A stretch of 64,000 bases of DNA, from the NCBI GenBank assembly GCA_965655095.1, contig OZ296648.1:177320001-177384000 (forward strand), read 5' to 3'. This document shows positions 2,729 to 47,517 of this stretch, piece by piece. Origin of the DNA: Haplodiscus bocki (lineage: Eukaryota). The notes beneath the pieces are model-generated. The model was given only the letters and a program-made list of their open reading frames with translations. It was not told the DNA's origin and did not search any database. Every line of letters begins with the position of its first letter. Position 1 is the first letter of the stretch. Made by a program: the position numbers and the translations under genes.

Positions 2729-3431
2729 TGTAGCGGCCCTGTATGAACCAGTACGAACATTTTGCAAGCAAATACTCGACATCCACTTCAGATTTATATT
2801 GTCATCTTTTGTCCCCCAGCCCCATAAACAGGCCTCTTTTAAAACAATCAAGTCTCAGCTTTGTATTCAATTAGCCAAGTAAACCCACACTTGAAGTGGC
2901 AATATATCTTATCATAAACTATCATTTTCACATGTTACATTATATTCCAGTCCTAACTTGTTGATTTTCATACGCATCTAAACTTATAACCAGGCCTCAA
3001 TTTATAAACTTTCATGTTAATCTAAACTTGTAAATTATCTTAAAAACATGAATCCTCCAACATTCTGCTGTTAATTGTAATCCTGTTTAAAACTTGACTA
3101 TTCGTGAATTCGAAACAAGAAAAAGAAGCAAAAACAAAAATCAGCAATCAGACGAACACGGAAGCGAAACGAGAAGAAGCTGCTTGTAAAAGAAGACAAA
3201 AAGAAAGAAAAACTCTGAACAATTGTGATATTCTGCTGATCATCACTAATGTAAGTGATTTGTGTTAAATATTAAAGTTAAATTCAGTCTTAAAGCAGAA
3301 CTAGATTTTTCTCTTAGAACAATCCCAAAGAGTACCTAACACAAACAACCGTCCTCGCATCCGAAGTATTGAAAGAAATGAGAACTCTAAACTCTTGTTG
3401 CCAATTTTCCAATAAAATCACGGTTGTTAAA
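2729..3431 (+). repeat. Element 1 5' LTR
   Basis: TGTAGCGGCCC...CGGTTGTTAAA, matching 14722-15424 with about 7 substitutions seen by eye. Splice-donor-like GTAAGT at 3251-3256; AATAAA at 3411-3416. Confidence 0.97.
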
Positions 3432-3432
3432 T

Positions 3433-3451
3433 TGGTGACAAGGGTGGGATT
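3433..3451 (+). promoter_or_regulatory. Primer binding site of Element 1 (tRNA-Leu/Ser-like)
   Basis: TGGTGACAAGGGTGGGATT lies 1 nt after the LTR. Its reverse complement AATCCCACCCTTGTCA-CCA resembles a tRNA 3' end of the Leu/Ser type. Confidence 0.8.
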
Positions 3452-3830
3452 GTTTTAAGCAATTTAGGTTAAAAATTCTTAACTTAGCATGATCATAGCT
3501 TTCCAAAAACTGCCTTAAGATCTCTTTGCCGGGACTTGTGCCGCGCTAACGCTAGTTTGTGCTCCACTAGCGAAAACCACCGTAGACGGCAGCTAAGGCC
3601 CATAGGTAGGAAAATTGAAATGAGCACGGGCAATTAGGAAATTGGAATTTTGTAAAACGAACTACTCTTCAGTACGGTTAGTTTAGTTCTTCATTAAATG
3701 ATTAACTTGTAGATAACTTCAAATACTAATTTTAGCTTGTTTTCTCTAACTGCCTTCATAAATAACGCAATCCTTCTTTTTGAAAATGACTTGCCTCCAG
3801 AAAAAGTTTTCCGTTTTTAAAATTATCTGA

Positions 3831-4082
3831 ATGTTCTCTAACCATACTAATCAACTACCCCTGTACCTTTTAAACCCAAACAACCCCGTTGACCCCCCAC
3901 CCCGTTATTCACGGAGCGACTCCGGGAGGCTACGCTACGATAGCAGCTCTGTTTTTCTTTGGGCGCTTTTCGCATTCTGTGTACTAGCACTCCTCTTTTT
4001 GATAGTGGTAGGATTAGTCCTCGTGCGCATACAATTAGATCACGTAGTAGCCAGTTGCACAGCCACTTCGCTAACAAATTGA
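3831..4082 (+). CDS. Small leader ORF: 83-aa single-pass membrane peptide with PPxY motif
   Basis: ATG-initiated; PPPRY followed by a ~25-aa hydrophobic stretch (VFLWALFAFCVLALLFLIVVGLVLV); lies between PBS and gag. Confidence 0.45.
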   Translation: MFSNHTNQLPLYLLNPNNPVDPPPRYSRSDSGRLRYDSSSVFLWALFAFCVLALLFLIVVGLVLVRIQLDHVVASCTATSLTN

Positions 4083-4577
4083 AGAATTCCTAACCGCACC
4101 TCAGTGGAGTTCGACTGTTTTTTTCCCAACATTCAATGCATTCTTTCATCTTTAAATCAGAAGCCAAACTCTTAGACCCACAGCATACCCCCACCCAATA
4201 CCCGTGTTTCTTCTGCCAGGTCGAATCGTTCGGACTCTTCAACATTTGGAGAAATACTCTGCCCATGCTTGTCAATTGTCACCTCAATTGTCTCTAATTT
4301 ATTTAACCTTGTTGCAAATCCACGATACCGATCATAGTACCACTATTGTCATCGAAAAGCTTTCCAGTAGGAAACAACTATCGAGAGTGCATCCCAAATC
4401 ACTGTTTTATTTCCGGTTAGCTAGAAAGTGGGTCAAAAACTTGCACCTTATAGAAGTATATTTGACAAATCTGTACCTCAAAAGTGAGAAAACTCAAATT
4501 TGAACTGCAATTTGCGCCAGTCCCTCAAATTCGCACCTTTTTAACAAGTATAAAGATAACGCTGACTACTAATCATA

Positions 4578-5981
4578 ATGACTGAAGTGGAAGAAAATAA
4601 CATCGATGTCAACGAATTTGAAGAAAGAGACGTAGACGCGTCAAGGAGATCTCGAATAACAAATTCAAATGACCCTCACTCAACCCCGGGATTTGCTGCG
4701 CGACACGAAGCAGGTGGATCCGCTTCGGCCGGACCTCATTTTTCGACACTTTTGGGCCATGGAGCAGCTCCAACTGCCCAGATGGGACCTGGTGGTTTCT
4801 TTTTAAACCCCACTAGTACCCTGCCGTCATGCCTGATGCCTGACTCATTTACTGGATCAGGAGACTTTGAAGACTATCTCCAAAAGCTCAACACGGCCGC
4901 GATGCTCTCGGGATGGCACTCTTCCCGACACGACAACCGTCCCCAGTACTTTGCACTTCGATTGAGGGACAATGCACTTCATTTTTACACCACATTGTCA
5001 CCCGAACAACAGAATGATTTTGACCTCCTTGTAGACGCTTTCAGACAAAATTACACAACCAATGTGGACATTTTGAAAGCACGATTAAAAGCTGCGAAGC
5101 AGCAACCAAGTCAAGATATTGCAACCTTCCTCTGTGATATTCGAACATTGGCACGCCGAGCATACTGTGCCCATCCGCATCTGATAGACCAAATCGTCCT
5201 CACCAGTTTCATCGAGGGATTGCAAAGTTCCACTCTCCGATGGGAAGTGAGAAAAACGAAACCATCGACAGCCGATGAAGCCTTGACAATGGCCATTGAA
5301 CTAGACTCTTTCCTTGCTCTGGAGCGCCAGAACAATGCTCCGGCCAGTTCCTTGTTCCCGAGCAGCATCAATTCAATCGCAGCAAATGCTTTGCAGACGG
5401 ACCCTATGGACGAACTCGTGAAAAGCCTTCGAAAAGAAATTGACGAATTGAAGTCATCGATCAACAGGAGACAAAACTCGCCCGAGAGAGGTCGGAATCA
5501 GTATCGCACTAGTGACCCAAATTGGAACAGAAGCGGATCCAATGAACAGACACGTTATCGACAAAATTTCGAAACAAGAAACGACGAACGGAGATCCAAC
5601 AGGTATGACAATAGAAGTAATTCAAGAGACAGATCAGAAAACAGGGCAACCCACCATAATGACCGGAGCACTTCGTATGACAAACAAAATGGTTTCAAAA
5701 CCCGGTCAGTTCGATTCGAAGAGGATCGTGGACGGACACATAACAATCAACACAATCAATCAATGCGCTACAATACACATAGCATGAATGCCGGAAATCA
5801 TCAGCCTATGAATAGCAACCGCAACAAGACATCTTCAAGATATCCACCTCAGAATCAAGAATGTCGACATTGTAAACGAAGAAACCATGCTTCTCATGAG
5901 TGTCAAGCCTGTTTTAATTGCCTCCGCGTTGGACATTTCCGAAGGGACTGTCCTAGGCAACGATCCAACCAGGAAAACTAA
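4578..5981 (+). CDS. gag: Gag (capsid + zinc knuckles)
   Basis: Retrotransposon-gag-like core (LRLRDNALHFY...KQQPSQDIATF...SFIEGL), R/N/D-rich region, and two CX2CX4HX4C knuckles (CRHCKRRNHASHEC, CFNCLRVGHFRRDC). Confidence 0.93.
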   Translation: MTEVEENNIDVNEFEERDVDASRRSRITNSNDPHSTPGFAARHEAGGSASAGPHFSTLLGHGAAPTAQMGPGGFFLNPTSTLPSCLMPDSFTGSGDFEDYLQKLNTAAMLSGWHSSRHDNRPQYFALRLRDNALHFYTTLSPEQQNDFDLLVDAFRQNYTTNVDILKARLKAAKQQPSQDIATFLCDIRTLARRAYCAHPHLIDQIVLTSFIEGLQSSTLRWEVRKTKPSTADEALTMAIELDSFLALERQNNAPASSLFPSSINSIAANALQTDPMDELVKSLRKEIDELKSSINRRQNSPERGRNQYRTSDPNWNRSGSNEQTRYRQNFETRNDERRSNRYDNRSNSRDRSENRATHHNDRSTSYDKQNGFKTRSVRFEEDRGRTHNNQHNQSMRYNTHSMNAGNHQPMNSNRNKTSSRYPPQNQECRHCKRRNHASHECQACFNCLRVGHFRRDCPRQRSNQEN

Positions 5982-6014
5982 AACAGTCTACGCAAAAGGG
6001 TCTTCGCGCAGACT
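5972..6014 (+). promoter_or_regulatory. Putative -1 ribosomal frameshift signal (gag-pol)
   Basis: G GAA AAC (5972-5978) directly precedes the gag TAA. pol is in the -1 frame and open from 5972. An imperfect hairpin AGTCT...AGACT spans 5985-6014. Confidence 0.7.
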
Positions 6015-9000
6015 TGAATAATAGAAAGGGCCCACAACGAACAATTGGTTTAAACTCAGTGGTCGATTCGCGCAGCGTTTTTGTGCAATTGAAAATTTTA
6101 GACAAAATGGTGGAAGCAGTATGCGATTGTGGAGCAAGTGTATCTTGTTTGAGCTCTGAGATTTACAACGAACTTAAGAAAACTTATCAAATAACATTGG
6201 AAGCCTGCACTAGAAGCCTGAGAGCGGCAAATGGACTGCCGATTGAAGTGAAAGGCATGATCAGAGTACCAGTATGTCTGGGGAATAAATTATTCTATCA
6301 TGAGTTTCGAGTTTTGGAAAAATCAGAAGCTGACTGCCTTTTAGGTCTGGATTTCTTAGAACGCCATAAATGCGACCCCCTGTTTTCACGAATGGAGTTA
6401 AGGTGGGACTCAACCCATTCTGCCCCCCTCTATCACAAAAACTTTGAAAATGACCACCATGCTATCTTTCGAGTCGTTGCGACCGAAACCATTAAAGTAC
6501 CAGCAGGCCACGCAACAATTCTTCCAGCACACATCCCAAATTGGAAGAGACCACCTTTCCACCTAAATGCTGTTTTTGAACCTTTGGAGAAATTCAATAT
6601 GAGTGAAGACATCTCAGCTCACAACATACTTTTTGATTTTTCCGACGATACGATCCCTGTCATTTTGACTAACGCATCGGACTCTGAGATCACGATCTAC
6701 AAAAACACAACTCTTGGGTCATCCGAACTTGTATCGGACGAACTCATCAATAATGTTAGCCACCAATTGCCAGCCCCCAGCGCACCTCCGGCTGCAGGAT
6801 CGGTACAAAACCGGCCAGACTCTTCGAGATATGACTTGCGAACAGTGATCACCTCAGTTGATTCAACCATTCACCGACAATACCGTCAACAATTTGCCGC
6901 ACTCGTCAAAGAATTCAAGCACGTTTTTTCGTCCTCAGAATGGGACTTGGGTAAGTGTGACGCTACGAGTCACAAAATTGATGTCTACCCTGACTCCAAA
7001 CCGATCAAAATTCCTAATCGTCGAATGCCATTGCCTTATAAGGAGGATTTGCAGTCAAAACTTGATGTGTTTTTGGAGAAAGATTTGATCGCACCTTGCC
7101 ACAGTCCTTACAGTTCTCCTGCTATGCTAGTGCCAAAGAAGAATGGAAAGTTGCGTCTTGTTATTGATTACTGCCAACTAAACAAGCAGACTGTTAAATC
7201 CAGTTGGCCGATCCCGTCTTTTGAAGAAATCTTCGACACACTGGGCGGAAGCTGTTATTTCTCTACAATTGATATGTCCGCTGGATTTTATCAAGTACCC
7301 ATGGATAGGGACAGCCAAGACTACACAGCATTTAGCACTCCCTTTGGATCGTTCAAGTGGCTGCGAATGCCGATGGGACTAACTGGAAGCCCAAACACTT
7401 TCCAAAGCCTAATGGAACGTGTTCTTACTGGCCTTACCTGGAAAACGTGTGTACCCTATCTCGACGATTGCATCATCTTCTCCACAACCCCAGAGGAACA
7501 CCTTTCACGTTTACGCCAAGTATTTCAACGTTTCCAGCAGGCCAACTTGAAAATCAATCCATCGAAATGCGCTTTCTTTCAAACGAAGGTACAGTTCCTT
7601 GGGCACATTGTCAGTAAGGATGGACGTCAGGTGGACCCCGAGAAAATCAATGCAGTACTTAAGTTTCCTACCCACACCAACCAGACACACGTGAAGTCCT
7701 TCTTGGGCTTAGCCTCCTACTATCGCCGCTATGTCAAAGATTTCGCTGAAATCGCTCGACCTTTACACAAAGCAAGTGAAACTTCTTCCGAGTTTCAATG
7801 GAATGACGCAGCACAAACTTCTTTTGACTCGTTAAAACATGGTTTGACGACCACTCCAATTTTAGCATATCCGTCACTTCAAAAGCCATTTGTGTTATAT
7901 ACAGACGCCAGCCAATTTGCAATGGGCGCTGTTTTGGCTCTGGAACAAGACGGTTTAGAACGAGCAATCTGTTACGCCTCCAAGGCTCTTTCCAAAACCG
8001 AGAGCAAGTATTCAGCAACTCGTCGTGAACTCTTGGCCATTGTAACTTTCACCCGTCACTTCAGACACTATTTACTGGGACGCAAGTTCACCATTGTAAC
8101 GGATCGTCGAGCACTTCAATGGCTCCATAATTTCAAAGACCCGGATGGAATAACCGCCCGTTGGTTAGAAAAATTAGCACCTTTTGATTACGATGTTCGA
8201 CATCGTCCTGGGAAGTCTATTGGACATGCTGATGGACTTTCAAGAATTCCGTCGCCCATACATGCAGTAGCAGAAACCAACAACCCTTCATTCCCGTTTG
8301 AAGAACATCTGGGACCCAATGACTCGCCCACCTATCAGACGCAAGTGAACGACGGTAGTTACTACTCTGACCAACATCACATTGATTCCCCCACGACGAA
8401 TGCAACAACTCAACAGCAAGATGAAGCAATCGGCATCTACCGCGAAGCAGTTGGAAACCTTTTCGATATCCACGAGTCCTTTGGCCACTGTGTGTCCGCT
8501 GACTTCAAAATGTCGGCCGGTATAGCGAGAAAGATTCGCCGTAACTACCCTTGTACTTACCCAACCGGATGGAATCACATCACGAACCCCTTTTGGCCCC
8601 AATGGTTGCCTGAATCCAAACGATACCTCTACCATTTAGTTACAAAACAGAAGTTCTATCAAAAACCAACTTACGGAACACTGCGCGCTTCCTTGGAAAG
8701 AATGCGATCGCACGCCGAACAGCATCACGTTTACAAAATTAGTTTGCCATGTATCGGCTCTGGCCTCGACAAGCTCGAATGGGAGCAAGTACGCCAACTG
8801 ATTCAGGAAGTTTTCCGTACCTCCCCTTTTCATATTACTGTTTTTCTGAAAACTCCAGTAGACCCTAAGGAGAACGACTGTAACTCCGATTTCCATGACA
8901 ACGCCTTGGTACAAGCACAGGAAGCTGACGAAAGCTTACACCAGGTTCGGAAATGGATTCGAAAAAGTCGTGTACCTCGGAGGGATGAACTGCAAGGACT

Positions 9001-10771
9001 CCCTCGTTTAGGATGGCAAATGTTCAACCAATTAGCTAGTCTCCACATCAAAAACAACGTGCTTTGTCGAAAGTTTGAACCACTTGACGGTAATTTGCCC
9101 TTCTTACAAAAGATTATTCCGCGATCCATGGTACCAGAAATTTTGACGGCTTTACACAGTTCTAAAACCGCTGGTCATTTGGGAACGCACAAAGTCATTG
9201 AAAAAGTGCGTCAACGTTTCTGCTGGCCCGGATTTAAAGAAGATGTCAAGCAATTCATCCAATGTTGTGACGTTTGTCAAAAGAAGTCTGGACCCCCAAA
9301 GACCCACCGCCATTCTTTAGTTGACTGGAAGATCAGCTACCCCTTCCATCACATTGGTCTCGACTTTCTTGGCCCACTTCCCCTTTCTAATGGCAACCGC
9401 TTTATTCTTGTGATTGGCGACCATTTCACCAAATGGTACGAGGCGATACCCCTGCCAGACCAGCAAGCTTCCACTACTGCCGATGCGCTAATTGAACACT
9501 GGATTTGCCGTTTTGGATGCCTTAACAGCATTCACACGGACCAAGGCCGTAATTTCAAATCAGCCTTGTTTCAGCGTCTGATGACTTTGCTCGAAATCAA
9601 TAAGACACGGACAACTTCTTTCCACCCACAGTCAAACTCAGTCATTGAGCGCATGAACCGCACATTACTGAATATGCTCACCAAAAGTATCGACAAACAA
9701 CAAGCTAACTGGTCTTATTTCCTTCCCTTCGTTCTAATGGCATATCGGTCCTCCGTCCACGAATCAACCGGTTTCACTCCCAACCGTCTGGTCCTTGGAC
9801 ATGAGGTTTTGCTTCCTCTTGACTTGATGTATCCGCCTCCCGGAAGCCACGTCCCAACTAACATCAATGAATATGTGATGACCCAACAACAGAAATTTCA
9901 CCAAGTTTTCGAACTAGTTCGGTGAAATATTACAGCTCAACAACGCCGTCGCAACGCTCTTTACAACAGGAAAGTCCACGGCCCCACATACAGAGCGGAT
10001 GATTTTGTCCTTCTCCATTACGACGTCACTGTCACTGGCCAAAGTCCAAAACTATCCAGCCCCTGGCGCGGCCCTTACCGCATTTTGAAGTGCATTAATG
10101 ACGTTAACTACAAAACTGAGGAACTCTCAACTGGCAAACAGCTAATTGTTCACTATGACCGCCTAAAACGATACCATGGCAGTCCGCCTCCCTCAACGAC
10201 AAAACCGGCCCGACCTTCACCTCCTGGACCTGCTCAGCAGACGACATCGCAGCCCTCCTCGGAGACCGTCAACCACGATGACTGCGTTGTCTCGTATTTA
10301 CCTCCTCCTACTCTCTTTGCTCCCTCGCCGTGGTTCAGCCACCCGCTTCCGACCCCTACAGACAACACCCCTTCCCGAAATGTCACCGTTGCTTCCCATG
10401 TCTCGCCACCTATTTCACCGAGTATTACTGCCTCCACACTTCCCTACGCTTTAATGCCTAGCTCCTTGCCATCCCAAGCCTCAATTCCTTCCCGTAATGC
10501 GACTTCTTCCAATCAACCCAGGACAATCCCGTTTACCAACTCCCCGCCTACGAGACCCCCGTCTTCCCCGGTGGCGAATATTGTTCGTCGCGCTGCTCGC
10601 GAGCTACACAGCCGCAGTCCCTGCAACAAACGTACCCTCCGACCTAGCACGGCGACTCAACGAAAAGCACAGCCTCTTTTCCGCTCTCGCTTACCCCGCG
10701 ATCTGACGGATTTCCTTTCTCCTAGGAGGCAGAAAAAAGCGCAGCCTTCTGCTCTGTCTAACCAGCACTAA
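6014..10771 (+). pseudogene. pol: Pol: protease - RT - RNase H - macrodomain - integrase (GPY/F) - P/S/T-rich tail; one in-frame stop at 9923-9925
   Basis: PR VCDCGAS; RT YLDD; RNase H YTDASQ...RELLA; integrase H-H-C-C, IGLDFLGP/IHTDQG/SVIERMN; in-frame continuation PWRGPY after the TGA into ORF 10085-10771. Confidence 0.95.
8435..8848 (+). other. TARG1/OARD1 (Poa1p-like) macrodomain inside Element 1 Pol, between RNase H and integrase
   Basis: GNLF...GHCVSADFKMSAGIA...YLYHLVTKQKFYQKPTY...ISLPCIGSGLDKLEWEQV...VF parallels the TARG1 motifs AHCISEDCRMGAGIA / YIYYLITK..KPTY / MPRIGCGLDRLQW (recalled, not searched). Confidence 0.9.
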
Positions 10772-10846
10772 CACTCTGTCACAGCCAATGAACCAATGCC
10801 GAATGATTGTATGGTCTTCTCTTTATTTAGGAGACACACCAGCTAT

Positions 10847-13201
10847 ATGACGTCACCCACCCCTTTCTTTTTCCTTCCTTTTTTATCCTCCTTCCTCAAC
10901 GTCTGTGCTGATGTCCAGTTCACAACACATTTGAGCGATTCATTGGACGACCCTGTTTTCAAGAAAGGTGCTGCTTTTGTCTTTCAATTTCAAGCCGTGA
11001 CACCGGAAAGTGAGAGTAAGGTTCGTGTGTTCTCACCGTTCCCAAGGATCCCTGATATTAACTTGACCAACGCGTATACTATCCTTCAACAACGTGGACA
11101 CTCCGATACCCTAGCAGGAATGGCCTCGGTTAAGCTGTGCCACACTGCAGACTTGGAACAATTATATGATAACTTGTTTAATCGACTCGCCGAAAAATTG
11201 AAAATATTGGAAAAAGAAATTCAAGCTGCTCAGACAGATCAACACAACTTGGTGACGATGGCTTCTTCTTTCTTACCGCCGTCGATTCACCCACATGACG
11301 CACCTTCACGAAACAAACGAGCAATTGGACTCATCGCAGCGGCTGCGGGAGCCGCGGGACTGGCTCTGGGAGACCCGGTCAAAGAGGCTGCATGTTCAGC
11401 GCTCTCTATTTTTAACCTTTGCACAGATACTTCAGATTTGCAACACGACATTGACGGTATTTTAGCTACTCAATATCAGTTTCAAGATGTTCTGCAACGC
11501 GTTCAAACGAAAAACGATGAAAAATTTTTCTTGCTTGGTAACGAAATCAAAGACACACAGGACAGTGTGGTCAAGATAACAAAACTCGTGGGCACACAGT
11601 TAAAAACCCTGGAAAAAGAATTAATGGAAATCAAAGGCGTGATAGCCAGCCTTCCGGTTTGTAATCAACAACTTATACACAGTATGTCCTTTTTGCAACA
11701 AATTCGGGATTATATTGATCATTTGGGAACACTGTACGCACATATTAAATCTTACAGAGCCGCTTTTTACGCCTACCAGATTGCGCTCTATTCCACTATT
11801 TCGTCACTGGCTGCTGGGTATGTCAGCCGTCAATTTCTCCTCCCTTCCCAACTGGCTTCCATTGTCAGCGACCTTGCCCATGACGAGACTCTCCGTGGCA
11901 ACAAGCTCTCGCCTGCCATCCATGTGGGCCAGGAAGCCATCTACTATGAACTCCAGATGGTTTTAGAAGTTTCCCTTCTCCCTAAAGGTATTTCGGTTGT
12001 CCTTGGCGTTCCGATGAACTCTAAGCGCCCCTTCAACGTCTATCGCGCAATTTCCCTGTACCAGCCTAACGATGATGGCGATACCGCTTCCTTGTATCAC
12101 TTCCCCAACCCTCTTCTAGCCATATCTACTGACAATTCCCGTTTTGCTGAGCTTGATGCCGCCAGCCTTCAGCAATGTTCTGGTAATAACCGCATTAAAC
12201 TCTGTCGTCAAGGTTTTTCGACCACTACAGACGAAACCTTGCTTTGTTTACCGTCTTTGTACTATAATTACGATATACCCGCTCTTCGTAACTGTAAAGT
12301 AGAATCTGTCCTTCTGCCTGACGCTCCTCAAGCTTTTTACTTGGCTGATGGTTTATATCATATTATCTCTCGTGACCCTCACATACAGATGAAAAATGAC
12401 AGTGGCTCTGACTTTTCTATTTCTACCTTATCTTGCAAAGCTTGCTTGATCCGCCCTAGCTGCAGTAGCACCCTCTCTTTCAATCAAGGTGATTTGGAAC
12501 TCCGCCCTGACCTCGATTTCTGCAAAACTAAACCCGAACCCTTCTTGGCCAAAATACAGCTTACTCCTTCTCTGGATTAGATCTTTCAGCATGTTCCCCG
12601 CACCGCCAGTAACTTTCACACATATTCCGTGACGGAAGCCCGTCACTCAGTCCTTAGCAGCGTTCGTTTGGAATTAGCCGAACTCCCTAATGTTAAAACA
12701 ATGTCCACCGAATCCCTTGCTGAGCTTGCAAGACCAATCGCTCAGTAAAATTTTTCCGTCTCTCCGGCCACTTCTGCAGCCTTATCCTCTTACCTCCCCA
12801 CCCGTACAGCTATCTGTTTTTCGGTCGTCTCCATCACTATCTCTCTTCTTACCTTCAGTATTAGTTTTACTCTCTTCCGTCGACAATGGAAACGTCTCTT
12901 TGCCCACCCTCAACGCTTTTTCCGTGGTACTTCTGGCAAGTTCTTGCACATTGTGGATGCCCATCCAACTTCCCCTAACACAGACTCTTCTTTCTTGTAC
13001 CTTTCGGTGCAAGAGTTTCAGGCCTTGCAGGCTCTCGCCCATGCAACTCTCCGTGACCGGTCCCCACCCTTAGTCTCACCCAACCCCCCGGCTACCGCCT
13101 TACCCACTCACCCGCCTACTAACTACACTCAACCTAACCCCCAACTCACTAGTGTGTATCCTTCTGTTACTGTGCCTCTGTACTCCGAATCTACTACTTA
13201 A
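10847..13201 (+). pseudogene. env: Env, class I fusion glycoprotein (baculovirus F/errantivirus/paramyxovirus F-like); in-frame stops at 12578-12580 and 12746-12748
   Basis: Signal peptide MTSPTPFFFLPFLSSFLNVCA; furin site RNKR (11309-11320) followed by fusion peptide AIGLIAAAAGAAGLALG; heptad region; Cys-rich region. The in-frame TM (ICFSVVSITISLLTFSISFTLF-RRQWKR) and tail continue through ORF 12944-13201. Acceptor-like TTCTCTTTATTTAG ends at 10830. Confidence 0.88.
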
Positions 13202-13592
13202 CTTGTCACCCTTTCCGCGTATGTTATATATGATTCTCAGTATCTATGTATCACCTTCTATTACTTCTTTTTATGTTCCTATGTCTTCTCTTCTCATCCT
13301 GCGCGATGCCTCCTAACGCGTTTCCGCGTTACCACCTTTCCTCCTCCTGCCGCGCTTGAGTGTGCGCAATTTTGGCACGTTTCCGTGCGTTTTTCCTCCA
13401 GTCTCGGACTAGACGCGCTCTCTGCGCCCCGCATTACGGTGTTCGACACGTTTCCGTGTCTCCCTGTACTTGGTGACTTCTTGTCTTCATACGTTTCCGT
13501 ATGTAGCCTGCCCCCCTCTTTTTTCGTTTTTCCTTTTTTCGTTTTGTCCCTTCTTTCCCTCACTATGTTTGTATCATCTCTTGTTGTTTCAG

Positions 13593-13938
13593 GTCGCACT
13601 TCAACTTCTTCAGCACCCACCTTGCCCGCCGACACCCTGTGTTAACCAGTTCTGGACGCATCCACCCTGTCGCTGTCGGAGACCATGTGTATCTGGTGGA
13701 AGACGTCCAATATCGCATCACCAAGTTGTCCCCAGACAGTGATTCCGTTTGTTTACAAAAGATCAATTCGAGAGACCGTCCTTTTAAGCGTTCCATCCGC
13801 CAAATCTGGTTGCCTCCACCCACTACTTCTGAATCTTCTGCCTTCGCTGACCTCCCACAACCAACTGTTTTTGCCCAGAACCCTTGCCTCCTCCCGTTCT
13901 CCCCGACGTCATGGATAAGTCCACCCAAGCTGACATAG
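13593..13938 (+). CDS. Uncharacterised accessory reading frame (possible small beta-barrel), perhaps the frameshifted N-terminus of the J-domain ORF
   Basis: Follows a long pyrimidine tract and TTTCAG acceptor (AG 13591-13592). VGDHVYLVEDVQYRITKL...VCLQK has an SH3/Tudor-like alternating pattern. It overlaps the next ORF in a different frame. Confidence 0.35.
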
Positions 13939-14672
13939 ATAAAGAAACTGCTCTCAATGATTGGGTCACTGTCACTACCGACTTTTCTTCTGTCAACCAA
14001 CTGGACAAGGCTTTCCAAGATGCCCGGCGTGAGGCTGAAGTATTTTACGATATGTATACTGAGGCCGACTTGGCTGCTGCCTCCGCCCGCAAGCAAATTA
14101 AACAGCTCACAGCTGAATCTCAACAACTCCGTTCTTCCTTGGATGACTTAAACCGTACCCACAATAGCATGATGGCCGATTCCCTCCGACATCTTAACGA
14201 AATCAGTTCTCTCCGCACTCATCTATCTTCTTTGGACGGCTCCCACACGAAAGCGTTAGCTTCAATGATCCAACACCATCTGTTATCTCTTCCCACCAAT
14301 TTTAACGATCCTGCCACCCCGGACGACACATTCTATCATTTTCTTTGCTGCAACCCTTCCGCTGATATGTCTACACTTGTCCGTCATGCCAACACACTCC
14401 TGCGCTGCCTACATCCTGATAAAGCTTCACCCACTACCGACCACGCCGTCGCTGCTTCTCGCCTAGTTCCCCTCCTTACTAACATCAAACGTGTGTTGAC
14501 ACATCCCGGCCTTCGCAAAGTGTATGACCACTGTGGTCTTCTTGGATTCCGCCGCCTCCTGGATTCTTCTCTTCGTTGCTACCGTTGCACCCCTCGAGAC
14601 GCCGATGACAATTTCACCAAGCAAGGCCGCTGTGAATTCCCACAATTATTCCTGCTCTTCTCAACCTCCTGA
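13911..14672 (+). CDS. Accessory protein: coiled coil + C-terminal DnaJ J-domain
   Basis: Heptad region (ARKQIKQLTAESQQLRSSLDDLNR), then FYHFLCCNPSADMSTLVRHANTLLRCL-HPDK...IKRVLTHPGLRKVYDHCG, the J-domain pattern (HPD at 14412-14420). Confidence 0.82.
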   Translation: MDKSTQADIDKETALNDWVTVTTDFSSVNQLDKAFQDARREAEVFYDMYTEADLAAASARKQIKQLTAESQQLRSSLDDLNRTHNSMMADSLRHLNEISSLRTHLSSLDGSHTKALASMIQHHLLSLPTNFNDPATPDDTFYHFLCCNPSADMSTLVRHANTLLRCLHPDKASPTTDHAVAASRLVPLLTNIKRVLTHPGLRKVYDHCGLLGFRRLLDSSLRCYRCTPRDADDNFTKQGRCEFPQLFLLFSTS

Positions 14673-14708
14673 TTTTTTCCCTCCAATTGCGCGGACGCAA
14701 TTTCCCGC

Positions 14709-14720
14709 GGAGGGGAGTAG
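14709..14720 (+). promoter_or_regulatory. Polypurine tract of Element 1
   Basis: GGAGGGGAGTAG ends 1 nt before the 3' LTR. Confidence 0.85.
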
Positions 14721-14721
14721 T

Positions 14722-15424
14722 TGTAGCGGCCCTGTATGAACCAGTATGAACATTTTGCAAGCAAATACTCGTCATCCACTTCAGATTTATATTGTCATCT
14801 TTTGTCCCCCAGCCCCATAAACAGGCCTCTTTTAAAACAATCATGTCTCAGCTTTGTATTCAATTAGCCAAGTAAACCCACACTTGAAGTGGCAATATAT
14901 CTTATCATAAACTATCATTTTCACATGTTACATTATATTCCAGTCCTAACTTGTTGATTTTCATACGCATCTAAACTTATAACCAGGCCTCAATTTATAA
15001 ACTTTCATGTTAATCTAAACTTGTAAATTATCTTAAAAACATGAATCCTCCAACATTCTGCTGTTAATTGTAATCCTGTTTAAAACTTGACTATTCGTGA
15101 ATTCGAAACAAGAAAAAGAAGCAAAAAGAAAAATCAGCAATCAGACGAACACAGAAGCGAAACGAGAAGAAGCTGCTTGTAAAACAAGACAAAAAGAAAG
15201 AAAAACTCTGAACAATTGTGATATTCTGCTGATCATCACTAATGTAAGTGATTTGTGTTAAATATTAAAGTTAAATTCAGTCTTAAAGCAAAACTAGATT
15301 TTTCTCTTAGAACAATCCCAAAGAGTACCTAACACAAACAACCGTCCTCGCATCCGAAGTATTGAAAGAAATGAGAACTCTAAACTCTTGTTGCCAATTT
15401 TCCAATAAAATCACGGTTGTTAAA
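14722..15424 (+). repeat. Element 1 3' LTR
   Basis: Direct repeat of 2729-3431, followed by TSD GTTG. Confidence 0.97.
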
Positions 15425-17949
15425 GTTGTAATTAGATGGCAACCCATGGCATGTTGACTTGAGCGAAAAAATTCCTGTAAAACTTGATAGGCACTTGATA
15501 TCTAACATGATTAGCTGAGAGAATAATAACGAGAAATATTAGTGAACATTGCCCAGGTTCATCAAGCGTGCAAATCATGAAAGAACCATACATGTAAAAT
15601 GGTAGCATACAATCATACAAAAAAAAACAATTTATGACTTGTATGAAATCTATTATCGTCTATTCATGACTTGATGTCACCGTATCCTTCTTTTGAACTT
15701 CAAAACTTTCATGTTTTCATAGGTTACTACTATATATGAGTTTCTATGATTTCCATGTTTCTTCCACGGAAGTCAAATTGAGTGGCAGATGGGGAATTAC
15801 CACACATTTTAAGATTAAAATCAGATCAAGCGGCCAACTTTACATTTGTCGAATTCGAATCCAGATCGCCTGCCATGAAATTTTCGAAAGATAATTCGAT
15901 TAAATTTTTGATCAACCAATCATGTTTAGGCTCTTACTACTTTACTGGCACAATAAAGGCTACCCCACTTGAGAACACATTGGTAACATTGACTCATCAT
16001 TATTGTTGTCATCCCTAACATCAATGATGCATCAATTTTACATCGAAAAATGTGAATGACTCCTGGATATTGCATTAATGTTTCTTCCTCTTTTCCTTTT
16101 TTCAATTTTTTTCAATAATTTCCCATATAAAAGCCATCGATGTTCCGTCGAATAAACATCAATGATTCATCGATGAAACATGAATGAATCATCACTGAAA
16201 CAACGAGGAATCACCGATGAAAAAGTAATTTTAATTAAGTGTCCGACGGCTGAATTTGAAGTACGAAATTACGATTTCTTCAAATTTCATCAATTCCAAT
16301 ATAATTGAGCAAAAGTAATCGTCAAAAAGTTGATCTAAAATCGAAAGAGCAATAGGTTTAGAAATAACGCCGAATAAGATATTCTTGGCGAGTCTCAGGC
16401 CTGAAAATAAAATTTTTCTAGTAAAATGCCCTGTTTTTGTTTTTAGTTTATAGAAGACGTCTTTTAAAGTTAGATCGATTGAATTGTAGCCAAAAGAAGA
16501 AGTAAAAGGGGAAAAGGGCAAAACCTGCAGAAGTAGAAAAAATAATTCTTTCTCGACTAGTTTAATTCTTACAAAGTCTTCTTAAAAAAATTTTTGAAAT
16601 TTTTGATGTTTGTAAGGAACTTTAAGATCATCCATCCTATAGGTTCCCACTAGTAGCTGAAAATTGGATTTGGAAAGCACAAGCATGATGATACTGAAAA
16701 TATCACGATATTATTTTTGTTGGATCGCGTTTATAATTAGAGCAACGAAAATGTCATTGTTGACTAATTTCAGCAATTTTGAGATATACAATTTTTTTAC
16801 ATGTAACGTTTTGTTTTCATTTAGCACCTAGTTTTAATAATTTTTCACTGTTTAGTGCGTAAATCTTTCAAAAATTGTGTTGCAAAATGGCAAATCTTAA
16901 AAGACATCATTGATAGATCAAATTTTTAATATTAGACACGGCTAAAGGTACTGCTCTCATTTGGACGCTTTGGAACAAAATTTTGATTGACAAATGTTGT
17001 AGTGTTGCTAAAAATGCCAACCTTGTATCCAGTCAATGTTCAAATATCTCTCTGGACCTTTAACCTGAGAACTTTCTCTTTGATTTCAACTGACAAGTCG
17101 ACAAGTCAGAATATGTTGCGAAGTTCTCTTTCGCCCCTGTGTTCAAATTTTTATAAGTTTATTTCTTCCTGGTTACAAAGTCCCGGTTGATTTGCTATAT
17201 TTTAGGCCTTGTGTTTTTGGGTTTTTTTTGCAACGCCAAGGGTAAAGTTTCTGTTTTCTTTCTTGTGCAATGTGAAAGATGCATGAATCATTAATGAACA
17301 TCATCAATGTTTTGAAACATTATGCTTAATAATCATTGATGATCTTCAGTGTTTCTATCGAAATCATCAATGTTTCCTCAATGTCATGTCGATATTTTTT
17401 CAAAGAATCATTAATGAAACTCGCGTTATAGCTAACGCTTAAACAGATATATTATATTTCCTAAATGCGTGCAGTAAGCTATTAAACAGGGAATGAATAA
17501 TGTTTAACACGGGAACTGCAATTGGTATTGACTAACCTGGGAGTTGCTGTTGCTGGTGGTAAATGGTATAAAAGAAAGCTGAAAGATTGGAATTGCACAA
17601 AGAGAAGGGAAAGCAAAATTTCTAAAGGCGCGGAAATGTGGTTCGACGTGATTGGCTCAACGACCAGTCACGAAGATGTCGTCATAACTTCGTTTCCTAG
17701 CTGGTACGAGAGAACGGCTTGGCCATTTTTGACTTACTCGCTTACCGGCCGGCAGCCATATTCCTTTCCCTTATTTCACTTCCCTTTCCTTACGCCTCGC
17801 TTTCTTTTCCTTCTTGCTTGGCCAAATTTATTCTGAATTCCCTTCTTTCTCTCCGCGGACGAAAATATTCCAAGACAATTCTAGCTTGCCTTGCCTACAA
17901 ATTTTGCCGCTTACAGACCCAACCGTCCTACTCTCCGCTTATCACCAAA

Positions 17950-18313: not shown

Positions 18314-18588
18314 CCCAGTGCACAGCCATAATATTCATTCGCTTGCTACCGTCAACTACCAACTTCCCCGAGGCAAAACTCTCTTCCACCTTCCTTTCAC
18401 CCATATTCTGGAAATATTCAAAGACTCTTCGTCAACAACCCGAAAATATTCAAAGACTTTTTCGCCTGCAAATTTGTCTGAGCCGCAAATCAGCAACAAC
18501 CCGAAAATATTCAAAGACTTTTTCGCCTGCAAATTTGTCTTAGCCGCAAATCATCAACTATATCCCGGAAATATTCGAAGACTTTCTG

Positions 18589-18885
18589 GGCAGCAATCAA
18601 CAGCATCAACCAGCAGCAGCAACCAGCAGCAGCTACCAACAGCAGCAACCAGCAGCAGCTACCAACAGCAGCAACCAGCAGCAACTACCAACAGCAGCAA
18701 TCAGCAACATCAACCAGCAGCAGCAACCAACAGCAACAATCAACCGCAGCAATCAGCAGCATCAACCAGCAGCAGCAACCAGCAGCAGCATTCAGCAGCA
18801 ACAATCAACAGCAGCAACCAGCAGCATCGATCAGCAGCAGCAACCAGCACTAACAATCAACAGCAACGACCAAAAGCAACAACCA
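18589..18885 (+). repeat. Degenerate CAG/CAA trinucleotide array inside the solo LTR
   Basis: (CAG/CAA)n interrupted by AAC/ATC units; it accounts for the Q/S/A-rich ORF 18261-18938. Confidence 0.9.
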
Positions 18886-21332
18886 GTTTCGTCCTACCAG
18901 CATCACCCCCACAATCCACGACGACCCACGTTAGATAACATTACGGTTCCTAGCACTGGCTACGTCCTGCTAGAAGTTGATTTAGGATTAGCCGCCCGGT
19001 TGCGAGTGCAGTCACCGTTACCGAGGACCATTTTTTGTGACATTTCGATTTTTCTAAAACTCCCTTTTTGTGATTTTTCTTTTTTTTCCTAAGACGTAGT
19101 ACTAACTATTAACCTGTAAAAGTAAAACTTTATTATTCACGACCTATTGGCAGTCCCTATGACGTATGCCTTGGTCGCAGATAAAAGAGAATAAAATTCA
19201 TTGCTGGTTTCCCGTGGGTCCGGACTTTATCGGCAGGGACTAAAACACCGGCTTAAGATTAAACCCGACGAGCTGGTTTTATACCGCACGGAGGTACTTT
19301 TTTATACTAAGAGTAGTGTAAAATGCATGTAATGTAAAATGCATGTAATTTGAACCCCCTTTCCCTACAGACTAGCCTATCCAGCTTGGGACTAAAACAG
19401 GGGCTAGTCTTTTTTTACCCGTAATCCTAGTTTATCAAGAGAGACGTGGTATAACTAAACGTAAAACAAATTGTAAAATGGCGGGCTAAAAAAAAGCCGA
19501 CCAGAGATAAGACGGGACTTGTTCGCCACCCGCACTGGTCAGAAAAGTAAAATGGTGTATGTGAAACATTTTATTCTATTGTCAGGCAGTGGATGTGGAT
19601 GTGGATGTGGAATAAATTATAATTTTGATGTTTAGAAGTTTTAATTTATAACATTAAATTTATGGGACTAAATTTGAATAGTCCAAGAGTGTATTTACGA
19701 TGATTCATTTATAATTCAATTGGACTAAATTCAACGAGTCCAATTTTTATTCTTGAGTTTCTAAATCCTAAACTAAACTTAATTCAATAAATTTGACTTT
19801 TATATTTAACTTCATAATTTCAATTCAGACTAAATTAAAGTAGTCTGAATTGGTGGATGTTGATTGCATTTTGTAATTTTAATTCAGACTAAATTAAAGT
19901 GGTCTGGATTTTTTAATTGCTATTATATTCCTCACTCCTAAAGTGAAGTTAACATAACGGTGATTAATATTTTTCACGTTTGGTGGCACCCTTATTTATA
20001 CAAATCCTGATTTAATTTTTCCAACTTCTGGTAGTATCTTCACGTGCAAAATTTTGTTGCTGTAAACAGAATAAGAGAGACGTAAGTCGGGTTGGCAACT
20101 ATATTGAGCAGAAGTAAAGGCTATATGGCAAATTTCCCTGTGCTATTCCACGCTTACAATTTGGTAACTCCCCCTTACCAACGTGCAGTTAGTCGAACTT
20201 AGAAAGTTGGAAATTTGGAATACCTTCAATATTAATTCAATGTTCTTTCGTACCATTCTCCGCTATAGCTCAAAAGTCCTTGCTTGAATTCACGCAGTTC
20301 CTTTGTTCGCACGGTTAAGCAAGGCACGCCATTGAGACTTGTAAATATTAGCCGTCGCTATAACGCTGTAGTGCTGGCTGAGTTAGCTACCGGCACAGCT
20401 AAGTAAATATTAGATTTGTAATACCAGTACCCCTACCACGTGCGACAAAACATTAATGGAACATCAATAGAACATCGATGTTTCAGAAATTAACAACACA
20501 TTGTGAACATTACTTATCTTTGCCTCGTTGTCTGTTTAATGACCGAGCCTGTTTTTTCCACGATGACATCGATGATTAATCAATAATTTCAATGCGCTCT
20601 CAACTGGGACTGTAGAATTAGCAGGCGACACTTTCATTTAAGTGACGATGTATGACATCAAAATCAAGGAAGCGAACAGAGTTGAACTGAGTTGAAATGA
20701 TTTGTGAGGACAGCGCGAAAAAAAATTTTAGGAAGAAAAGAATTGATGAAAACGACTGAAGATGAGGTCTTCTCAACTGTTTAGTCGCGCACACGTCTAA
20801 CAATGTCTAATAAATATATAAACACTGTAAAAAGGCGCATTTCAATTTGTATGCAACTCCCGCAGATGAATCTATCCGAAACTAAATTTCGATGTAAATG
20901 AATGAATATTTTTCTGCAGGTGGGGTTTACAAACAGCTCCCGCAAACAATAAAAGAACTTCATCAGGGGTTCCTCAATCTCTTTCTATTAAAAAACCTAC
21001 CGTTTGAACTAGCAAATCTGGATTTTTCTGCCAGGAATACTGGATTCCTGAGTTTCTTGTTAGCACCTCTATATGCCCAAATTTCGTGGTGAGAATCCTG
21101 TATTCCTGAGTTTTCGGATAGGATCCAGGTTCACTATCTGAATGTGCAAAATTTGAAAGACATGCGTGAAATGTAATCAAAACATTCTATTATCTCCAAC
21201 CCATATTAATATGCTCTATCATTAATCGAGCTACATCCTTTTTGACTAGCAATTCCATATTAAGTTCCAACGTGTTAGTAGCAACTGCTAACTAACACGC
21301 TGAAATTTACTTAAATTGCAATTGGTAGTACA

Positions 21333-40683: not shown

Positions 40684-42051
40684 CTATGAAAACGGGAAAA
40701 GGAGGGAAGTTTGGGTGTGAGGTTTCAGCACAAGAGGGTCAGAAAATTTGATCTCTATGAAACTCGCAGCATCAATTAGAAAACCTTCAGTTTCACTAAA
40801 GAGTTTGGAGTGGGGAATAAAATTATAAATTAGGATTGTTGCAACTCCAGTTTTTGTTGACATTGTTGGCTTCTTGTAGGCTGGGTCTTGATCGGGTCGG
40901 ATTGTCTTCATCCATGTGTTCATTGGATCCAGTTGGTCTCGAATACCAATGTGGATGAGCTTTGAGAAGGGCCATTGGAGAAGATTGTTGTAGTCTCCAG
41001 GGAAGAGGGTGAATAGAATTGAAGCACACTTGCCTATAGCGGGTCCAATACCATACGGGTAGAATTTATTGAAGAAATTGTACCCATGGGGGTGAGTCCT
41101 GAAGATAGGGCTACTAAAGCTTGTGGCCGGCTCAATGAGGGGATCAGATGATGGTCGGGCCACTTTTGCAGAGTCGAATACAAATTTCACTGAGGGGATT
41201 TTCCAAATAATAACATCTGAATTGCCGGGTTCAAGCTGGCGAATTTTATAGTATAAGAAGAAGTATTGGGAGTGAACACCCGCAGTGATGGATGTGTAAT
41301 TCGATATTTCATTGGCAAACAGTTTTTCTAATTTGCAAATTCCTGTTGTGAGGTTCTGCATTGTGGTTGAAGAAGCTTCCTGTGAGTTGCTTGTGGGCTT
41401 GAAATCGGCGTTTGGAGTATTGTTTGTTTTTGTTGTGGGTGCCCCCACAGGGCCCACCGGGGTAGAACGATGAAGTTTGGGGTCACCAGGGCCAGAAAGG
41501 AGAAAAGCAGAGGAGGTAGGGTTAGGGTTAGGGCTAGGGTTAGGATTAGGGTTAACGTTAGGAATTAATAGAGGACTAGTAGCGGCGTCCTTGGCTTTGA
41601 TATCCTTATTGAGGGTTGTGTCAACCGGGAGAAAGAGCAAGTAGCGCAATAAGGCAAAGTCATTTTGCAATTGGAGGAGGATGAGTTGTAGTGTCTGCCT
41701 GTCTGATTGTTCGGCTTTCAAATGCTGGTTAACCTGTTTGATGGTTTTGTTAATATCCTGAAGGCAGTTCGCTTGATGTTGGAGTGATGAAGGCAAAGGA
41801 GCTGAAGACCCAGGAGTTGATTGATTAGCTGCTACATCTGGTTTAGACTGGTTTGTCGGCTGGAGAAGAGGGAGGAGGAGAGTGTTGTCCGCAATGTGTT
41901 GGTTAATAGAGGGAATAGTTTACAAAGGCATTCCGCAAATTAATTGAGCCAAAGGAAGATTCATTGTATTAGAATGGTCCAACGAGGTAGGTGGGTCAGA
42001 GGAAGATTGATGATGAGGGAGGAAAGCTGGTGCAAGTGGGTTAAGTGACAT
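40684..42051 (-). pseudogene. PAM2 motif - coiled coil - TRAF-type MATH domain protein; one in-frame stop at 41920-41922
   Basis: ATG at 42051 starts MSLNPLAPAFLP (PAM2-like) in the same frame as ORF 40684-41796. Coiled coil LQDINKTIKQVNQHLKAEQ; MATH motifs VIIWKIP, SPIFRTHPHGYNF, FPGDYNNLLQWPF, IRDQ. Confidence 0.85.
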
Positions 42052-45183: not shown

Positions 45184-46146
45184 TCAATTGTAGTGTGTTT
45201 TGTTGCGCTTTGGGCTTGTTGGCTTATCATTAGAAGTTGGAAATTGACACTGACGGATGAGTTGTTTGACTAAGTGTCTGGTCAGAGGATGAGTATTGTT
45301 GAACTGTGGAAAGTTCGTAAGTTTTTGTAGGGCTGAGAGGAGATTAGTTTGCTCTTCAGTCCCCGGTTTAATGGGAATTTTCCAGGTTCCAGGTTGCAGT
45401 TGCCTCAGACTATGGGCTGTTATTACAATTGGGTCAGATGCTTCACGCCACTCTATTTTTGTGATCTCCAAATGGTTACTCGTAGGTAGCAGGGTGCTGC
45501 CAGAGGCATTTGATGTTTAGTTCAAATGTCATATAGATCAACAAGAGCGTGCAGGATATTGATGTGTGACATATCGTTAAATCTCCCAAGGTTCTTGTCC
45601 ATATAATCCAGAAGATCGTCCAAGCTTTGGTTTTCTCTCTTATCCAGCGTCCTGGAAATTTTTAGAATTACAAAGAGGTTGGCGAACTCTTCTGTTCGAA
45701 CTGCTATGGGAATAAGGATTATCGCGAGTAGATTCTCAGTAACCCGCAATCTGACTTGTAAGGGACTTCCGACCGGAATCCAAAAGATTGTGGTTATAAA
45801 GTGTTCTCCTTGAAGAGAGAGTTGTGCCCACTTGCAGCGAATGTCGGCTCTCGTATGTGTCTTGTTGTTACCAGGTCGCTGTAAAGTAATTTCAATTGGG
45901 TTCATTCAGTGAATCGTCAAATATTCAAATTGTGTGATACATGCTCACAATTTTTGTTGGAGGAGGATTTTTAAAAAAGCCGTCCATAAAAGCAAAATTA
46001 GTAGATTCGAAAGGGCAAGAAAAGGTAACTTTTTCCCAAGTTTCAAGTTTTTCTGTGTCGATTTTGTAACTTTTAGCTGTAACGCTGTAGGTCAGACTTT
46101 TGATAATGTAGATTTTGTCGTTTATATCAAGGAAAATAGTTGTCAT
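45184..46146 (-). pseudogene. Cluster of degraded accessory reading frames (45925-46146, 45522-45905, 45184-45471)
   Basis: The first ATG is directly preceded by a CATTTAG acceptor; three abutting ORFs; GAG|GTGAGT donor at 45165; no recognisable domain. Confidence 0.45.
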
Positions 46147-46808
46147 CTAAATGATGAAATTTTCGTTTCCACAAACAATGTCACTAGGCATATAGATTTC
46201 TGAGGAAAGGAATTTCCGCAGATGATAATAATTAGGGGATCCAGAAGGGCAAGTATAGACAGACCTCTTCCTTCCCTGTTTCCGTTTCAATATGCAGCAG
46301 AATAGTCTCTGATTCGGACGTCAATTCAATTCTTTTGATTGTTTTTAGTTGTCCGTCAATCTTCACATACATCGAATCATCGCAAATCTGAGAACAAAGC
46401 CATCAGTTATTTCATTGCTCTTCGAGTATGTAATATTTATAAATTATTAATATAAAACTAGGATTGTTTTTCTAAAATTTTTGATTAGGTAAGAATTTTC
46501 TGAAATTTTTGATTAGGTAACAGGAAGATATTATGATAAAAAGATTATCAAATCAGCGTTCTTCATTCATTCTTCTTTTTCCATCTTCTTCGCTCGGCGT
46601 TTCTTCGTAGCAGAGCTTGGCATCGTCATGGAACGGGCCTTCCGGGTAGAAATAGGAGTTTCATGGTAGGGTAGGAGTCAGGTTCGGATGTGAGAAATGC
46701 ATCGAGAGATGAGGAGTCCGAAGATAGAGGTTAACGGATCGTAGAAAGAGGAGTCGGGATAAAAACAGGGGGGTCGTAGTTGCATATTCAAAAATTTCTT
46801 GTTGTAGG

Positions 46809-47405
46809 ATGGAACAGCCCGAAGAATTCTACGAGGAAGTTTCAGACGATGATGTTCAAGAAGTCCAGCCAGCGCAGGTGGCAGTCGTAGCACCGCTAAA
46901 TGTGGAGGTGCCGGAGATTCCGGAGAATCCGGAGTCTCCGTCACCTCAGCCTTCTCCCGTCTCTCTGCATCCGTCTCCCGCCTCCTCCGGTGGGTCGTCC
47001 CCTGTTGGTGGGCCTCCTGTTCCCCCGCCTCCTGGGTCCCCTAGGGAGGATGCCACGTCGTTCATGGGTTTTTACACCCATGAAGACGTGGTAGAACTTG
47101 AACAGTGGACGGTGGACGCGAGGGCCGCCAGAAGGGATCCGGCGGCTCGTATAGAGGAGCCCGAGGTGTCACCGAATTTAAAACTATATCTACGCTATGT
47201 ATATGGGACACAGTGGGAAGTTAAATTAATTCGTGAATCGGGGGAGGTTTTAATTGAACAATTAAAAGCTTATTTAGCAGGGTATAATCAATTAATCAGT
47301 TTCAACCGTCGGCAGTGGCTCCGACTGTTTCCTGCCTGGACTGCCCAAGAAAGGCGGGTGCAGTTGGGGGCACTCGCCGACGCGGGGGGATTTTGGGTTA
47401 TTTAG
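46809..47405 (+). CDS. Antisense accessory ORF, 198 aa (acidic/Pro-rich N-terminus, helical C-terminus)
   Basis: ATG-initiated, GC-rich, does not overlap gag/pol/env; TTGTAG acceptor-like site 1 nt before the ATG. Confidence 0.6.
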   Translation: MEQPEEFYEEVSDDDVQEVQPAQVAVVAPLNVEVPEIPENPESPSPQPSPVSLHPSPASSGGSSPVGGPPVPPPPGSPREDATSFMGFYTHEDVVELEQWTVDARAARRDPAARIEEPEVSPNLKLYLRYVYGTQWEVKLIRESGEVLIEQLKAYLAGYNQLISFNRRQWLRLFPAWTAQERRVQLGALADAGGFWVI

Positions 47406-47517
47406 GGCCTCGGGCCCTTCTTGCGGGTCGTCGGTCGTTCTCAGCCGGCGGCCCTTTTGTATGTCCAGTGCCGTCCTTGTGGTAAAAATCATGGAGTTGC
47501 ATAATACATAAAAGTAT

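Follow-up and report, generated by a model that had tools for sequence, protein, structure and literature searches.

A J-domain accessory gene between env and the 3' LTR in a clade of Ty3/gypsy elements of Haplodiscus bocki

We analysed a stretch of 64,000 nt of the Haplodiscus bocki genome (contig OZ296648.1, positions 177,320,001 to 177,384,000 of the forward strand), referred to here as the window, and confirmed that its positions 13593-14672 are ORF4, the fourth gene of a Ty3/gypsy element with an F-type env. ORF4 is a genuine, selectively maintained accessory gene of an element clade, and its product contains a J-domain, by which cellular proteins dock and recruit the Hsp70 chaperone. The original prediction, which placed a J-domain gene after env and before the 3' LTR, was borne out by the J fold, the HPD motif and a stop just before the polypurine tract (PPT).

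Architecture of the element and structure of ORF4

The window element has LTRs, gag and pol in the order PR-RT-RH-IN, i.e. the Ty3/gypsy order (Table 1). Its two LTRs show 7 mismatches in 703 nt (99.0% identity) and, since ten LTR pairs are 98.6-99.9% identical, many ORF4 lineages have been recently mobile. The primer-binding-site-like motif is similar after 10 of 10 other 5' LTRs. The window copy carries an in-frame stop in pol at 9923-9925 and in-frame stops in env between 12578 and 12748. Its env matches Baculo_F with E=0.0017, below the Pfam cut-off, which was exceeded by the env homologue P0241 and by one genomic copy. Most LTRs of the ORF4 clade (L089-L108) start with TATAAC/TGTAG and end with TTAAA/TATA, not with TG...CA.

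Table 1 Features of the window element and of its ORF4
Feature	Position	Strand	Basis or remark
4-nt target-site duplication	2725-2728 and 15425-15428		flanks of the window element
LTR element	2729-15424	+	Ty3/gypsy, F-type env
5' LTR, 703 nt	2729..3431	+	LTR comparison
Predicted splice donor AT/GTAAGT in 5' LTR	3249..3256	+	exon ends AT
Primer-binding-site-like motif after 5' LTR	3433..3450	+	sequence
gag frame: Retrotrans_gag, zinc knuckle	4566..5981	+	ORF list, Pfam
pol: protease, RT, RNase H, weak Macro-domain match, integrase	5957..10771	+	ORF list, Pfam
env, F-type	10831..13201	+	starts at phase-2 acceptor, then signal-peptide-like stretch
Polypyrimidine tract and phase-2 acceptor of ORF4	13573..13593	+	first exon base 13593
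ORF4 exon (sister copies without a break encode about 360 aa)	13593..14672	+	fourth gene of the window element
N-terminal small beta-rich domain	13648..13815	+	conserved in all lineages
Long helix / coiled coil	13983..14228	+	model residues 25-106
J-domain	14331..14528	+	Pfam, structure model, family matches
HPD	14412-14420	+	J-domain, helix II-III loop
RKVYD	14514-14528	+	J-domain end
[H/C]CG-x11-13-CxxC module	14529..14588	+	directly after J helix IV
Polypurine tract (PPT)	14709..14721	+	sequence
3' LTR	14722..15424	+	LTR comparison

A search of the 1.5-Gb assembly gave 1130 candidate ORF4 loci, of which 150 were scored. The upstream part and the J part lie in one frame in 22 of the 30 best-scoring loci (15 without a stop) and in different frames in 6, the window among them, while the N-terminal part is missing in 2. 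Because both parts share a frame at most loci, the region is one exon of about 360 codons. The suspicion that the upstream frame is the ORF4 N-terminus behind a predicted splice acceptor was therefore correct, and the comparison across the family of 13593-13938 with 13911-14672 resolves them into one ORF. In the window copy, ORF4 is frameshifted in the overlap of its two frames (about 13850-13940), and the downstream frame, 13851-14672, encodes 273 aa with a long helix followed by the J-like domain. A programmed frameshift was rejected, as most sister copies have a single frame, and the shift in the window is damage; the Met at 13911 was rejected as the start, as other subfamilies do not conserve it. 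The ORF4 stop is located about 35 nt 5' of the PPT and about 50 nt 5' of the 3' LTR.

At L018/L019 and L023/L024, ORF4 matches lie 12 kb apart and the upstream copy is without the N-terminal part, which suggests that some elements have most of ORF4 within their terminal repeats. At L084 (G000:C10:69547000-69556900, the array extending to about 69584000), a 2.73-kb tandem unit consists of LTR and ORF4, without gag, pol or env; there are at least 8 units, 98.5% alike, and the J part is open over 267 codons.

In every lineage, ORF4 homology opens at a pyrimidine tract and AG/G, with the last G in third codon position, and env starts in a similar way, at a phase-2 acceptor with a signal-peptide-like stretch downstream. 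No in-frame ATG is found upstream of the predicted LTR donor, and the AU of the donor exon joined to the acceptor G would give a start codon for env or ORF4. Of 10 other LTR pairs, 7 have the AT/GTRAG donor motif within the LTR, one has it in the leader and two lack it; shuffled LTRs contained it in 2-7% of 300 trials. Among the joints listed for four runs of contigs whose kind is not specified, none falls at the predicted splice sites, a result that speaks neither for nor against splicing. In P0077 and four members of its cluster, which form one outside lineage, an alignment made by eye places a Met exactly at the junction position. For the Drosophila springer subclade, a spliced env with an AU leader exon is documented (PMC12992720), and the present elements would resemble it in this respect, as predicted from sequence signals. 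Splicing from the LTR thus probably creates the AUG at which ORF4 starts, as it would for env; the predicted LTR donor may, however, lie outside the transcript.

Several other features were observed in the window. A Macro-like domain is located in pol of the window element at about 8620-8800, between RNase H and integrase, and another one in pol of a second LTR element at 51606-52622, before RT; with E=3e-4 and 9e-4, both narrowly miss the cut-off. This second element, of 20 kb (38119-58266, minus strand), has LTRs of 2.5 kb that are 99.3% identical, a Monjiviricetes-type fusion env (E=1e-35) and, between env and the 3' LTR, an ORF with a TRAF-type MATH domain (40684-41919, E=2.7e-14), i.e. 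another captured host-signalling domain in the same position as ORF4. It also contains several further frames of 110-225 aa at 45184-47985 (between pol and env, one of them, 46728-47405, being antisense) and 55006-55347 (before gag), with no Pfam match. An array of a 13-nt unit is present at 18525-18940, outside both elements.

The J-domain and the other parts of the ORF4 product

The window J-domain matched the Pfam DnaJ profile (PF00226) with 18.2 bits and E=0.0027, below the cut-off of 27.8 bits, in an alignment spanning profile positions 2-63 of 63. DnaJ matches at E<=0.1 were obtained for 14 of 18 aligned relatives, and five of the ten family proteins scanned (P0175, P0169, P0054, P0077 and P0051) passed the cut-off, by up to 31 bits, with E-values of 5e-16 for P0175 and 1e-9 for P0169. 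As these distant members pass it, the ORF4 family bridges to canonical J-domains. Many element copies in the host genome also exceed the PF00226 cut-off and, among the 150 matches scored in the DnaJ search of the genome, most of those below the top host genes coincide with element copies, as judged by coordinates and not by a count. The best PDB sequence match of the window J-domain was DNAJC5, with E=0.05, or 0.001 with the family profile.

The AlphaFold model obtained from an 18-row alignment (pLDDT 83) presents an 80-residue helix followed by a J fold, with helices at residues 140-144, 153-167, 177-196 and 199-217. Using this model, Foldseek returned J-domains in most of the top rows with a probability near 1.0, none of them at E<=0.001 (E>0.06); for instance, 1wjz was matched with a probability of 1.00 and an rmsd of 2.1 A over 69 columns. 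The VIA ranks 1-20 were all J-domain entries, with Z values of 6.8-7.9, which is a middling range. In both searches, the J-domain matches have an rmsd of about 2-3 A over 64-77 residues. The J fold anticipated from the letters alone is thus recovered by the structure model, whose matches are dominated by J-domains.

The domain had also been described as complete and intact. This description was overstated, because helix II of the window's clade has lost the equivalents of DnaJ Y25 and K26, with Ala and Asn at these positions. The H-7 position of helix II is Asn in the window's clade and basic in 4 of 9 lineage representatives. These nine representatives have 1-3 K/R in helix II, compared to 4-7 in 17 of 18 host J-domains, and sister lineages keep a near-canonical helix II. 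K26/R26 of helix II was needed in all J-domains tested, as described in PMC1906734, and, in the available text of a recent review, DnaK-contact residues are not all conserved among JDPs (PMC13254874).

The layout is not that of class A or B, as the J-domain lies near the C-terminus after a coiled coil and is accompanied by no G/F or client-binding Pfam domains. Sequence and model together indicate that the ORF4 product would be a class C J-domain protein. Its N-terminal beta domain might be SH3/KOW/Tudor-like in look; no Pfam family was found for it in the nine lineages scanned, the Atlas scores were all under 0.8, and its single-sequence model, with a pLDDT of about 35, was too poor for a structure search. 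A relationship of this domain with the integrase C-terminal SH3 found no support (probability 3.6, with 1 of 30 shuffles scoring higher). The Cys/His pattern of the module that follows the J-domain is present in 21 of 22 diverse ORF4 rows, and the exchange of His and Cys within it suggests a metal ligand, so that the module is a probable metal site. No transmembrane stretch was found in the ORF4 exon, with a maximal hydropathy of <=1.3 in 21 of 22 rows and above it in the 22nd, which was called from upstream of the splice acceptor. An arginine-rich motif was not found either, with at most 5 K/R per 10 residues.

Conservation, inheritance and exchange of ORF4

From 87 loci we obtained 42 uninterrupted ORF4 exons, 37 of them distinct, which belong to nine lineages with 21-60% identity. 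HPD is kept in 36 of these 37 exons and in 27 of the 30 best-scoring loci, in agreement with its expected conservation among copies. The within-lineage dN/dS of 11 pairs was 0.00-0.11 for the J-domain and 0.09-0.23 for the whole exon; HPD-K is kept under strong purifying selection, and silent sites are mostly saturated between lineages. In 22 diverse rows, hand-picked among HPD-bearing, apparently whole proteins (altered-motif singletons, e.g. P0057 and P0034, being omitted), only the H, P and D residues and three of the cysteines in the module are invariant.

Forty loci were hand-picked from the match lists to span the lineages, long open frames being favoured. In 19 of 20 loci, ORF4 is preceded by pol and env in the same orientation, the remaining locus being the tandem array, and env or its TM part is present in 18 of 19 among the loci listed. 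A profile search of 1.84 billion representatives gave 210 proteins at E<=0.001. The best identity in the host genome is 26-29% for P0169, 42% for P0077 and 57% for P0175, and these sequences point to other host genomes as their source. Env homologues on contigs of matching size give a weak hint that database relatives also lie beside env. The word search found no near-length relatives of P0169, and viral contigs gave no match to the ORF4 family. The JGI metagenome match L147 is 86% identical to a lineage of the host genome, and another one, L148, was rejected as a false match.

Trees of RT-RNase H, env and ORF4 (19 rows each) have well-supported deep splits common to all, which fits one old capture of ORF4 that would have been inherited since. 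With a midpoint root, ORF4 branches are several times longer than those of RT and env, and are to be read with a long-branch warning. No donor host gene could be retained, as none of 19 host J-domain loci is clearly nearest and family members prefer different ones; DNAJC24 was rejected, its matches being too weak to name it as the donor.

In three pairs of elements, L075/L076, L069/L072 and L036/L037, the four-fold-site differences are 0.04-0.21 in RT, IN and env compared to 0.67-0.70 in ORF4, and the amino acid identity of ORF4 is 53-66% compared to 94-98% in RT and 95-97% in env. A fourth pair shows differences of 0.05-0.08 in the backbone and 0.29 in ORF4, and the control pair 0.05-0.16 and 0.12, respectively. 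In the three swapped pairs identity falls just before ORF4, the LTRs align over their distal 96-240 nt only and the leaders are 91-97% identical (L071 stood for L072 in this LTR and leader comparison). In each of the three swaps, ORF4 and U3 were exchanged as a unit. As a single template switch would yield such a linkage, the swap does not prove an action of ORF4 on U3; U3 may be what selection acts on, ORF4 being carried along. Since ORF4 was swapped on near-identical backbones, it need not match its own Pol or Env, and the sequences of the swapped pairs argue against a client fixed to Gag or Env.

Possible functions of ORF4 and relation to known systems

For the family as a whole, we consider it quite likely that ORF4 recruits Hsp70, be it as an adaptor against a host complex, as a chaperone of the element's own particle or as a regulator of its own RNA or promoter. 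The reading that we prefer, with a confidence somewhat short of even, is that of an adaptor that would recruit Hsp70 and be directed against a regulatory or defence complex of the host. The LTR transcript would be spliced from one donor to either the env or the ORF4 acceptor, the junction making the AUG. The soluble class C J-domain protein would oligomerise through its coiled coil, the beta domain and/or the Cys module would bind the client, and the HPD loop would bring host Hsc70 to this client, leading to its disassembly or remodelling. The client would most likely be a host regulatory or defence complex that limits element expression, by analogy with SV40 T antigen and phage Rki, whose J-domains are used on host regulators. 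A more specific version, which we put forward only tentatively and find doubtful, is what would be the first Hsp70 co-chaperone encoded by a retroelement, on an exchangeable ORF4-U3 cassette that would turn Hsc70 against a silencing or restriction complex, its deeply divergent versions being retained and swapped as in a host-parasite conflict.

An Hsp70 adaptor serving the particle itself, in Gag folding or assembly, capsid uncoating or Env handling, would explain why ORF4 is always in cis with gag-pol-env and shares its predicted donor with env, and the J-domain of SV40 T is described as used in capsid morphogenesis (PMC3486835). Divergent ORF4 versions on near-identical backbones indicate, however, no tight sequence pairing, and the protein lacks a signal peptide or TM segment with which it could reach Env in the ER, so that we regard this explanation as unlikely. 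The original prediction had proposed a role in capsid assembly or uncoating, or else in the remodelling of host complexes; the former is weakened by the 53-66% identical versions, with saturated silent sites, found on near-identical pol-env backbones, and the latter would fit better. The joint movement of ORF4 and U3 in 3 of 3 swaps could instead point to a Rev/Tat/CERV-like regulator of the element's own RNA or promoter, whose beta domain or Cys module would bind U3 or the 3' RNA, with Hsp70 remodelling for transcription or export. An element that makes two spliced mRNAs also has to get its unspliced RNA out of the nucleus, and CERV of Cer1, which is spliced and has a coiled coil and an essential Cys loop, is described as acting in this way (PMC10309623). 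Nevertheless, with a gap of about 50 nt between ORF4 and U3 the linkage is expected anyway, and no arginine-rich motif was found in ORF4, for which no homology to CERV is known; we judge such a regulator improbable.

The loss of the Y25/K26 equivalents and the low charge of helix II in the window's clade, together with the Pfam DnaJ score of the window below threshold, could also indicate a decoy that does not stimulate Hsp70, in which HPD would bind or sequester Hsp70 or another partner and ATP hydrolysis would not be triggered. This proposal concerns the J-like domain of the window's clade and has a still lower probability in our estimation, as it is opposed by the strong purifying selection on HPD-K, by the near-canonical helix II of sister lineages and by the incomplete conservation of DnaK-contact residues among JDPs noted in the available review text (PMC13254874). 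The weak scores of the window (Pfam E=0.003, PDB sequence E=0.05, Foldseek E>0.06) would be compatible with a resemblance due to chance or with a captured host gene that persists as a neutral relic. That explanation is largely refuted and very improbable, since relatives beat the DnaJ cut-off by up to 31 bits, dN/dS is far below 1 and the frame is kept while silent sites saturate. The adaptor directed at a host complex remains our preferred reading.

The elements resemble the metazoan env-carrying Ty3/gypsy 'errantiviruses' as described in PMC13524379 and PMC12992720, with an LTR-gag-pol-env-LTR order, an F-type env and a 4-nt target duplication, and differ from them by a conserved J-domain fourth ORF after env and a predicted second acceptor. 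With polyomavirus T antigens and Rki of phage RB43, ORF4 shares the class C layout, the HPD and a presumed hijack of Hsp70 (PMC3486835, PMC13254874). Those proteins belong to DNA viruses, whereas ORF4 belongs to a reverse-transcribing element, has its J-domain near the C-terminus, after the coiled coil and before a Cys module, and has no homology seen with them outside the J-domain. CERV of Caenorhabditis elegans Cer1 is likewise a Ty3/gypsy accessory product encoded in 3' position, spliced as predicted for ORF4, with a coiled coil and conserved cysteines, but it replaces env, while ORF4 adds to it, and no J-domain is reported for it in the available text, where 'DnaJ' and 'Hsp70' have 0 matches (PMC10309623). 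The ORF3s of bdelloid rotifer LTR elements (GDSL esterase, DEDDy exonuclease) are also cellular domains captured 3', but are described as enzymes in place of env, not chaperone cofactors (PMC5408684). Arabidopsis SILENZIO, as described in PMC8616336, brings a J-domain and Hsp70 to transposon regulation; it is host-encoded and repressive, whereas ORF4 is element-encoded. The metazoan errantivirus survey has 'DnaJ' 0 times in its main text and 7 supplement files (PMC13524379), and the available text of the 2026 J-protein review treats phage, polyomavirus and herpes cases, with 'transposon' occurring 0 times (PMC13254874). No J-domain in a retroelement was found in the literature searched. As this literature did not extend to subscription journals, Repbase reports and bioRxiv supplements, an earlier annotation is possible.

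The usual picture of LTR elements in invertebrates is limited to gag-pol(-env). The ORF4 clade as a whole, of which one genome contains hundreds of candidate copies, has a layout like that of complex retroviruses, with two predicted spliced mRNAs as well as a conserved accessory protein bearing a host-chaperone docking domain. This extends virus-encoded J-proteins from DNA viruses to retroelements and makes ORF4 a candidate, open to assay, for a factor by which animal transposons counter host defence or are regulated, whose natural variants with and without a canonical helix II would be of use in the study of J-domain requirements. Our findings suggest that ORF4 elements redirect host chaperones as some DNA viruses do.
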